Source: Antedon mediterranea
Taxonomy: Eukaryota > Animalia > Echinodermata
Length of the DNA stretch: 64,000 nucleotides
Direction of reading: 5' to 3'
Assembly (NCBI RefSeq): GCF_964355755.1
Contig: NC_092675.1
Span: forward strand, 7,125,812 to 7,189,811
The position numbers and the translations under genes were made by a program. The notes beneath the pieces were generated by a model that saw only the letters and a list, made by a program, of their open reading frames with translations, searched no databases and was not told the DNA's origin. Positions 15,801 to 16,671 of this stretch are shown one piece after another; positions within the stretch are counted from its first letter, which is position 1; each line of letters starts with the position of its first letter.

Positions 15801-16671
15801 TTGCAGTGTATTTACAACAAGGCATATGTTACAAAATACAAAATATTCAAATATAAAAAGCTTACTTTTAACCTAGAGCTAAAGCATGATAAACGAAAGT
15901 ATAAATGCAAATCTTTAATGTATACTTACTCAAAACTCCAGTTTGTATGTGCTGATATCTTGCAGGATTTTGCAGTCGGCCTTCCCTTTTCGTATCAGAT
16001 ACTGTCATTGTGTAAGCACTTTGAATTACATTTCTATGTACAGTAAAATATACACAAACTCTACTTGATCTCCAGTTCCATGACCAATTCTTTAAATAGT
16101 TTTGCATACGGCTCACTAAATTATCAGTAGAAGGAAAGTGGTGGGTATATACCATTATATCTGCGTCACCAGTAGCAAATTCGCTCTGCATAAGTTTTTG
16201 AAATTTTTGATCGAACAACGTGTCTACCATGTTATTTGTTAAGGTGTTCGTTTGTGATGTTCCGGTGTTTACTACAAAGTAATTACCAACACTTGCTTCT
16301 GACGGAGCTGAAGATTCTACCGATATCGGATCCGGATAATAGCATTCTTTTGTATAGGTTTCAAGGCAGTATTGCCGGCTTGTTATTGTTCTATCATTAG
16401 GGTCAGTGTAGTGGTATAAGTGATGAAACGGCAAATCAAGCCAACCTTCTCCCGCGCTTCCTTTATAATTATAACGATCATTTCTGTTAAGAAGCATAAT
16501 AACTGCAAATTGAGTTTTACCGCTCTTTGCTGCTCCACTAAAATGTGAGTATATTTTGTAAAAGAATTCACGGTAATCTTTTTCTTCATTTCGACTTATA
16601 AATTGAGCTGAATACGCCCTGTCCACAATTGTACAGATGATGAACACAGCAACTAATGATGAAAACTTCAT
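11523..16671 (-). CDS. Secreted tandem AID/APOBEC(SNAD)-like deaminase - Cys-rich - SRCR - fibrinogen-related domain protein, paralogue B (1040 aa)
   Basis: Nine phase-consistent GT-AG exons: 16671-15930, 15391-14515, 14090-13828, 13723-13599, 13425-13125, 12879-12629, 12372-12197, 12077-11928, 11760-11523 (3123 nt in total). Signal peptide [25 protein letters not shown] at 15054-15062; PCKYC at 14937-14951; [19 protein letters not shown]...[19 protein letters not shown]; FRe[44 protein letters not shown]. Confidence 0.92.
14515..15391 (-). CDS. Paralogue B exon encoding the catalytic Zn-dependent deaminase domain
   Basis: WEHSEHG...[12 protein letters not shown], followed by [16 protein letters not shown] and the start of the Cys-rich region. 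Confidence 0.9.

Follow-up and report, generated by a model that had tools for sequence, protein, structure and literature searches.

We found that the first coding exon of a gene in the crinoid Antedon mediterranea encodes, after a predicted signal peptide, a deaminase-like domain (D1) that lacks every zinc ligand and lies directly against a second deaminase domain (D2) in which the active-site motifs are intact. Sequence comparisons confirm D1 as a deaminase-related domain homologous to D2. The exon occupies positions 15930..16671 on the minus strand of the window, by which we mean the whole 64,000-nucleotide stretch of DNA analysed. The encoded protein consists, in order, of a hydrophobic N-terminus, D1, D2 (joined without a linker), a cysteine-rich region, an SRCR domain (E 5.7e-22), an acidic linker and a fibrinogen C-terminal domain (E 1e-52). 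The original prediction had recognized the D1 and D2 exons but had placed the limits of the gene too narrowly: it has 9 exons, encodes 1042 aa and continues downstream into the cysteine-rich, SRCR and fibrinogen portions. These downstream domains are the best clue to function. In invertebrate immunity, SRCR and fibrinogen domains serve as microbe- and glycan-binding modules.

The window carries two related genes, copies A and B, both on the minus strand in head-to-tail order. Copy B has coding exons at 16671-15930, 15391-14515 and 14090-13828 (exons 1–3), 13723-13599, 13425-13125 and 12879-12629 (exons 4–6), and 12372-12197, 12077-11928 and 11766-11523 (exons 7–9), all on the minus strand; all eight introns of this model are GT-AG, and the frame is stop-free over 1042 aa. 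Exon 1 holds the signal peptide and D1, and its predicted limits were correct (ATG at 16671, with a phase 1 GTAAGT donor following 15930; likewise 4157-3410 in copy A). Exon 2 (14515..15391, minus strand) encodes D2, with HSE at 15062-15054 and PCKYC at 14951-14937, and the start of the cysteine-rich region, the remainder of which is in exon 3 (13828..14090, minus strand). The SRCR domain and acidic linker follow in exons 4–5 (13125..13723, minus strand; Pfam SRCR E 1.9e-14), and the fibrinogen C-terminal domain and stop codon in exons 6–9 (11523..12879, minus strand; Pfam Fibrinogen_C E 7e-11 to 2.5e-18); in both groups splice joints are present in a sequencing run that looks like RNA (X1). 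Contigs of this run, taken as RNA because they skip GT-AG introns, skip 5 of the 8 copy B introns at GT-AG ends (at 92% likeness, so that copy A may be the source of some) and the exon 2–3 intron of copy A. They also cover exon 1 in both copies, with 0 and 5 differences in the copy B contigs.

In copy A, coding exon 1 (3410..4157, minus strand) encodes a signal peptide and a D1 with 45% identity to that of copy B, exons 2–5 (340..3060, minus strand) encode D2, the cysteine-rich region and SRCR, and the fibrinogen exons lie past the left end of the window. Translated, the five in-window exons equal residues 1–771 of P0001 (XP_071953395.1), which NCBI lists as an "uncharacterized protein [Antedon mediterranea]" of 1042 aa and which has the architecture of the copy B model. 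The two proteins are identical at 736 of 1027 aligned residues, and an HMM scan of the window returned exactly four deaminase-like domains. An acceptor-like site just 5' of the copy A ATG (4158-4200) hints at a non-coding first exon.

The signal peptide of copy B (16606..16671, minus strand, about 22 aa) was called from hydropathy alone, and its cleavage position is approximate. In an 11-residue stretch at residue 6 the mean hydropathy reaches 3.3, versus at most 1.3 past residue 30; the corresponding peak in copy A is 3.1. The cysteine-rich region (13828-14760, minus strand) has 18 Cys among its 172 aa in copy A, includes a CCCC run and is well conserved between copies. It gave no significant Pfam match and may be an undescribed disulfide-rich domain.

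Significance of the similarity between D1 and D2 had been named beforehand as a check on the proposed relationship. Smith-Waterman scores for the four D1–D2 pairs are 104, 131, 104 and 98, and for each pair none of 2000 shuffles equalled the score (shuffle maxima 65–69). Alignment of the two D1s with the two D2s by hhalign gives a probability of 97% (E 7.4e-11, 133 columns), and the motif pairs originally quoted do align between the domains. Plain BLASTP of copy B exon 1 versus exon 2 recovers a 30-residue stretch only (E 1e-4). An HMM of five single-domain deaminases from other, non-crinoid organisms (P0002 and P0004–P0007, all with HAE and PCxxC) scores D1 at 23.3 bits in copy B and 12.0 bits in copy A, and the D2s at 44 and 51 bits. 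With 500 shuffles of each sequence (350–383 reported), the best reported scores were 4.7 and 5.6 for D1 (3.6–5.6 over all sequences), and none reached the D1 scores. The profile of the same five relatives aligns with D1 at E 4.1e-5 (hhalign), and ten positions are invariant in all nine domains aligned (D1, D2 and the five relatives). Searched alone, D1 has no matches in Pfam or in the Atlas. The evidence for D1 and D2 comes from two paralogues of one species.

In both copies D1 lacks the zinc-ligand His, the catalytic Glu and both Cys. The column of the D2 HSE motif reads MVD in copy B (16222..16230, minus strand) and IVD in copy A, so that in both copies the His is gone and the Glu is replaced by an Asp that forms no motif. 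The column of PCKYC reads PSTDN or PNSDD, with a gap of 1–3 residues depending on the alignment; in copy B this segment, FPSTDN, lies at 16120..16137 (minus strand) and both Cys are gone. Motif scans of the two D1s found no HxE, no DxE and no Cx2-4C, which together with the aligned columns bears out the earlier statement that HxE and CxxC are missing from both paralogues. A single CxE in D1 of copy B lies within the strand 1–2 insert, away from the helix-2 position. Since the lost ligand and catalytic residues are established as required for zinc-dependent deamination (PMC5699538, in excerpt), D1 is expected to be without this activity. The strand 1–2 insert also carries a Cys pair specific to D1 (16333..16371, minus strand), which is present in both copies and likely forms a disulfide.

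The fold matches of D1 models are consistent with the sequence result and contribute little to it. A model from nine sequences (pLDDT 56, pTM 0.53), whose input alignment contained motif-intact deaminases, lacks strand 5 of the 2-1-3-4-5 sheet. Its best Foldseek match has E 0.35 (not significant), and 12 of the 42 listed rows are AID/APOBEC chains. VIA-align over 48,161 chains gave RadC, ADAT2/3, APOBEC3G, ADAT2/3 and APOBEC3H as its top five, at Z 4.2–4.7 and under the noise level; a manual count of the best 50 rows found 23 deaminase-like folds and 7 macrodomains. The AlphaFold2 model of D1, D2 and the cysteine-rich region (4 sequences, pLDDT 38) has APOBEC3G as its best Foldseek match (E 0.26, not significant). 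After strand 5 of D2 it has, at very low confidence, two short strands together with four helices, and the post-D2 region with its 18 Cys is modelled mostly as helix (pLDDT <50). The D1–D2 complex prediction, with a score of 0.00, counts neither for nor against an interaction.

Judging from its motifs, D2 is likely a cytidine deaminase: HSE and PCKYC, the motifs of helix 2 and helix 3, are intact in both copies and align with HAE and PCxxC of its relatives. Its designation as the active domain in the original prediction agrees with these sequence motifs, which are its sole basis. The best Pfam models for D2 (NAD1, SNAD4, APOBEC2 and APOBEC_N, E 7e-4 to 0.05) all fall under the curated cut-offs (NAD1, 19–20 bits versus 27; SNAD4, 16 versus 27; APOBEC_N, 14 versus 25). 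Atlas scores of 0.78–0.87, all below 0.9 and to be read as leads only, point to unnamed molluscan clusters (0.87 and 0.85), an AID-like cluster from bacteria (0.85), SNAD1/2 (0.81) and further APOBEC clusters; those neighbours with an assigned family are all AID/APOBEC-type.

Features of the individual SNAD clades are matched in part. Two of those of SNAD1/SNAD2 are present, namely a signal peptide (by hydropathy) and a long insert, seen in both D1 and D2. SNAD1/SNAD2 also have a C---CxxC---C signature in strands 5-7; what follows D2 in the crinoid protein is the 18-Cys region described above, modelled mostly as helix. The Cx3C active-site motif given for SNAD1 (Table S1 of PMC5889660, in excerpt) is not found in D2, which reads CxxC. 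The strand-3 aromatic residue and the Thr before CxnC of SNAD3 are present (LIYTWIFPC). SNAD3 further has, past strand 5, an insert with Cys that is made up of four helices and two strands, to be compared with the very low-confidence strands and helices modelled past strand 5 of D2. The loss of the signal peptide in SNAD3 is not matched, one being predicted in both copies, and the SNAD3 Pfam model gave no match. Nor is the loop-7 Trp that replaces Tyr in SNAD4 matched, D2 reading TTIGKF or TTIGKY after strand 4. In architecture the protein appears to resemble the SNADs, but for every SNAD clade tested it departs from defining traits.

No two-domain relatives besides copies A and B were found among 1.84 billion cluster representatives, a set in which relatives more than 50% identical to copy A are hidden behind copy A. 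A profile of D1, D2 and the cysteine-rich region had 3 matches in this set; of these, P0003 is a TPR/CHAT protein and was rejected as spurious. D1 searched against proteins of 434–2000 aa retained 1 of 426 candidates, copy A itself, and D2 against proteins of 160–510 aa retained 0 of 79. The D2 profile search retained 5 of 763 candidates, viral contigs 0 of 63, and metagenome contigs 4 of 116, all of them single-domain ORFs. The one candidate retained among 53 from prokaryote genomes (L001) lies antisense to another gene and was rejected for that reason. The nearest relatives found (P0002, P0004–P0007, L003 and L004) are 22–28% identical to D2 and have one deaminase domain each, with no D1, SRCR or fibrinogen domain in the sequences compared. 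Their best Pfam models are SNAD4, NAD1 and APOBEC, near or just over cut-off. L002–L005 together with P0002 and P0004–P0007 make up a single-domain AID/APOBEC-like family, several members of which have an N-terminal hydrophobic segment; L004 comprises two copies in separate ORFs. Literature searches found no paper that combines a deaminase domain with SRCR, fibrinogen and APOBEC, and none on the copy A/B protein at the level of titles and abstract openings. The covered text of PMC5889660 mentions "Antedon" and "Anneissia" 0 times each.

D1 is probably a duplicate of the neighbouring D2. Its local scores are higher with D2 (98–131) than with the seven single-domain relatives (38–69), which supports internal duplication. 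D1 and D2 alone share nine conserved columns, among them W-x3-P-x4-Y in the strand 1–2 insert, versus two shared by D1 and the relatives alone. An unrooted nine-sequence tree (D1 branch 2.07 versus 0.21) neither shows nor contradicts duplication. The earlier idea of one domain per exon, and hence of exon duplication, survives in that D1 and D2 are sisters, but exon 2 contains D2 together with about 80 residues of the cysteine-rich region and has phase 1-2, so there is no clear sign that a whole exon was simply copied.

Comparison of the copies shows D1, as far as substitution counts can be read, to be under purifying selection between the paralogues (pN/pS 0.58, bootstrap 0.48–0.70; dN 0.54, dS 1.65), with an open frame in both; its synonymous sites are near saturation, which makes the ratio rough and likely to overstate dN/dS. 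For D2, pN/pS is 0.41. The best-conserved blocks of D1 are strand 2 with the next loop (11/12 identical) and strand 4 with the residues that follow (10/12). Strand 2 reads GNYFVVN in copy B (16267..16287, minus strand); its final Asn is common to D2 and begins the first of these blocks. Two such blocks arise in 220 of 5000 shuffles (about 4%, marginal), and strands are expected to be conserved regardless. The conserved segments would correspond to those leading into AID/APOBEC substrate loops 3 and 7; a loop-3 Asn is named for AID/APOBEC enzymes in Table S1 of PMC5889660 (in excerpt). Identity between copies is 45% in D1, 69% in D2 and 82–97% in several downstream parts. Synonymous divergence declines from 5' to 3' as well (dS 1.65 in D1, 0.83 in D2, 0.43–0.61 in the cysteine-rich region, 0.39 and 0.11 in the SRCR exons). 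This gradient suggests that the 3' ends have undergone gene conversion or unequal crossing-over.

Overall, we see an even chance that D1, a duplicate of D2, takes no part in catalysis and acts as a partner, for binding or structure, in a secreted immune protein whose SRCR and fibrinogen domains aim D2 at microbes. In this explanation we infer the exon 1–2 splice, secretion, the activity and substrate of D2, microbe binding and the role of D1. The protein would be released into body fluid or mucus, its SRCR and fibrinogen domains would bind microbial or particle surfaces, and D2 would change C to U in foreign nucleic acid that lies exposed. D1, positioned against D2, would keep pocket-side segments (the strand-2 Asn and the start of loop 7) and might help hold substrate or stabilise D2. 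As D1 is not basic (pI 7.9 and 6.3), nucleic-acid binding through charge is not favoured. A more specific version is doubtful, namely that the protein represents an undescribed crinoid clade of secreted AID/APOBEC-like deaminases acting as a targeted extracellular mutagen, in which SRCR and fibrinogen bind the microbe, D1 grips nucleic acid and D2 edits it. If true, this would be the first secreted deaminase with pattern-recognition modules of its own and would suggest how SNAD-type enzymes find extracellular targets.

D1 could also be a decoy that evolves fast and soaks up inhibitors of D2 made by pathogens, which we consider unlikely. We know of no pathogen inhibitor of D2, and this counts against a decoy. 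The two genes differ most in D1, which also has the long branch noted above, but the pN/pS of D1 is nonetheless below 1, and the accompanying fall of dS from 1.65 to 0.11 can be explained by homogenisation of the 3' ends. Decoy or binding roles have been proposed for inactive AADs (Krishnan 2018, PMC5889660, in excerpt). Protection of the producing cell, which the original prediction had favoured, fares worse, and we give a rather low probability to D1 being an auto-inhibitory or removable pro-domain. Its N-terminal position directly against D2 would suit this role, and RxxR is present in both copies (RSSR and RSPR). However, this RxxR lies where strand 4 begins, within the domain, no conserved basic or other protease site exists at the D1–D2 junction, and the 7 single-domain relatives are without D1. 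Protection is also less likely because the predicted signal peptide would already keep the enzyme from cytosol and nucleus and hence from the nucleic acids of the producing cell. We regard a binding or structural role for D1, without catalysis, as more likely.

About equally improbable as the pro-domain is a recognition or effector molecule in which D2 has free nucleosides or nucleotides as its substrates or is inactive. PDB sequence searches gave nothing significant, and the only matches of the D2 profile were dCMP deaminases (E 0.3 and 0.59). At the time of the 2024 SNAD1 paper (PMC11004436, in excerpt), no secreted deaminase had been characterised biochemically. Against this reading, both copies have intact HxE and PCxxC motifs, and the families nearest to D2 are AID/APOBEC-type. 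We attach very little weight to the idea that D1 has gained other chemistry or a metal site: the Asp that stands in the Glu column, Asp/Asn close to where the cysteines were lost, the Cys pair kept in both copies and the conserved His of YHYT could be taken to favour it, but these residues make no recognised motif, and a Cys pair in a secreted protein is more simply a disulfide.

Least probable of all is that exon 1 encodes a separate short secreted protein unjoined to D2: no X1 contig crosses the exon 1–2 joint in either copy, but donor, acceptor and phases match in both copies, exon 2 of copy B has no in-frame Met upstream, intron interiors are without X1 cover, which is low and broken in several other places too, and the NCBI model joins the exons. 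X1 contigs end 5 bases (15925 and 3405) and 6 bases (3066) inside the exon 1–2 intron. The uncovered joint is not evidence against splicing. We infer the splice from the GTAAGT donor and CAG acceptor, the matching phase in both copies and the NCBI model.

A dead tandem deaminase domain is by itself known already, and it is the combination seen here that appears to be new. E. coli Cdd holds an active and an inactive deaminase domain as an internal pair. Plant Des/Cda and PITG_06599-like cytidine deaminases with two domains do so as well (Iyer 2011, PMC3239186, in excerpt). All three differ from the crinoid proteins in that they belong to another division of the superfamily, have the dead domain at the C-terminal side, are unsecreted and carry no immune recognition domains. 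The original comparison with ADAT2/ADAT3 and APOBEC3 captured the tandem or pseudo-catalytic pairing and itself noted that here all Zn ligands are lost; ADAT3 and the A3G N-terminal domain keep zinc, so plant cytidine deaminase is the nearer parallel. ADAT2/ADAT3, which likewise pair an active with a pseudo-catalytic domain, are two genes that act in cytosolic tRNA editing, and zinc loss destabilises ADAT3 (PMC7713142, in excerpt). Double-domain APOBEC3 and LaAIDL1 share with the crinoid proteins two deaminase domains in one chain. The brachiopod LaAIDL1 has two putative active sites (Liu 2018, PMC5956068, in excerpt). The A3G N-terminal domain is non-catalytic, binds nucleic acid and retains its zinc motif (PMC5699538, in excerpt); A3G is intracellular, and D1 is devoid of zinc ligands and not basic.

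There is a likeness in overall design to the SNADs, of which SNAD1-3 range over vertebrates and SNAD4 over sponges (Krishnan 2018, PMC5889660, in excerpt). SNAD1-4 have in common with the crinoid proteins a signal peptide, an HxE...PCxxC domain and tandem paralogues, and the SNAD1 and SNAD3 rows in the available part of PMC5889660 also share Q[FY]A (strand 1) and Y-T (strand 3). They differ in that the same part lists no dead tandem domain, SRCR or fibrinogen for them, and their Pfam models all score under cut-off here. A secreted AID/APOBEC-like pair with a zinc-ligand-less first domain and with SRCR and fibrinogen was not found in the databases and partial literature searched. Substrate and delivery route of secreted AID/APOBEC-like deaminases are not known, according to the available text of the 2024 SNAD1 paper (PMC11004436). 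The SRCR/fibrinogen fusion would place such a deaminase in an echinoderm, the animals so far being vertebrates and sponges (PMC5889660, in excerpt), and it provides a concrete targeting hypothesis. The zinc-less D1 twin would be a natural control for the role of the fold without catalysis.

Elsewhere in the window, exons for EGF, Ig and FN3 domains and a protein-tyrosine-phosphatase fragment at about 50700-61200 (minus strand) likely belong, by their predicted domains, to a receptor phosphatase with a Tie-like ectodomain. An open frame of 359 codons at 35862-36941 (minus strand) is rich in Asn, Lys and Glu and has no Pfam match. Two open frames (42284-42682 and 44968-45288) resemble tandem repeats, their unit being about 11 codons long, and are probably non-coding repeats.
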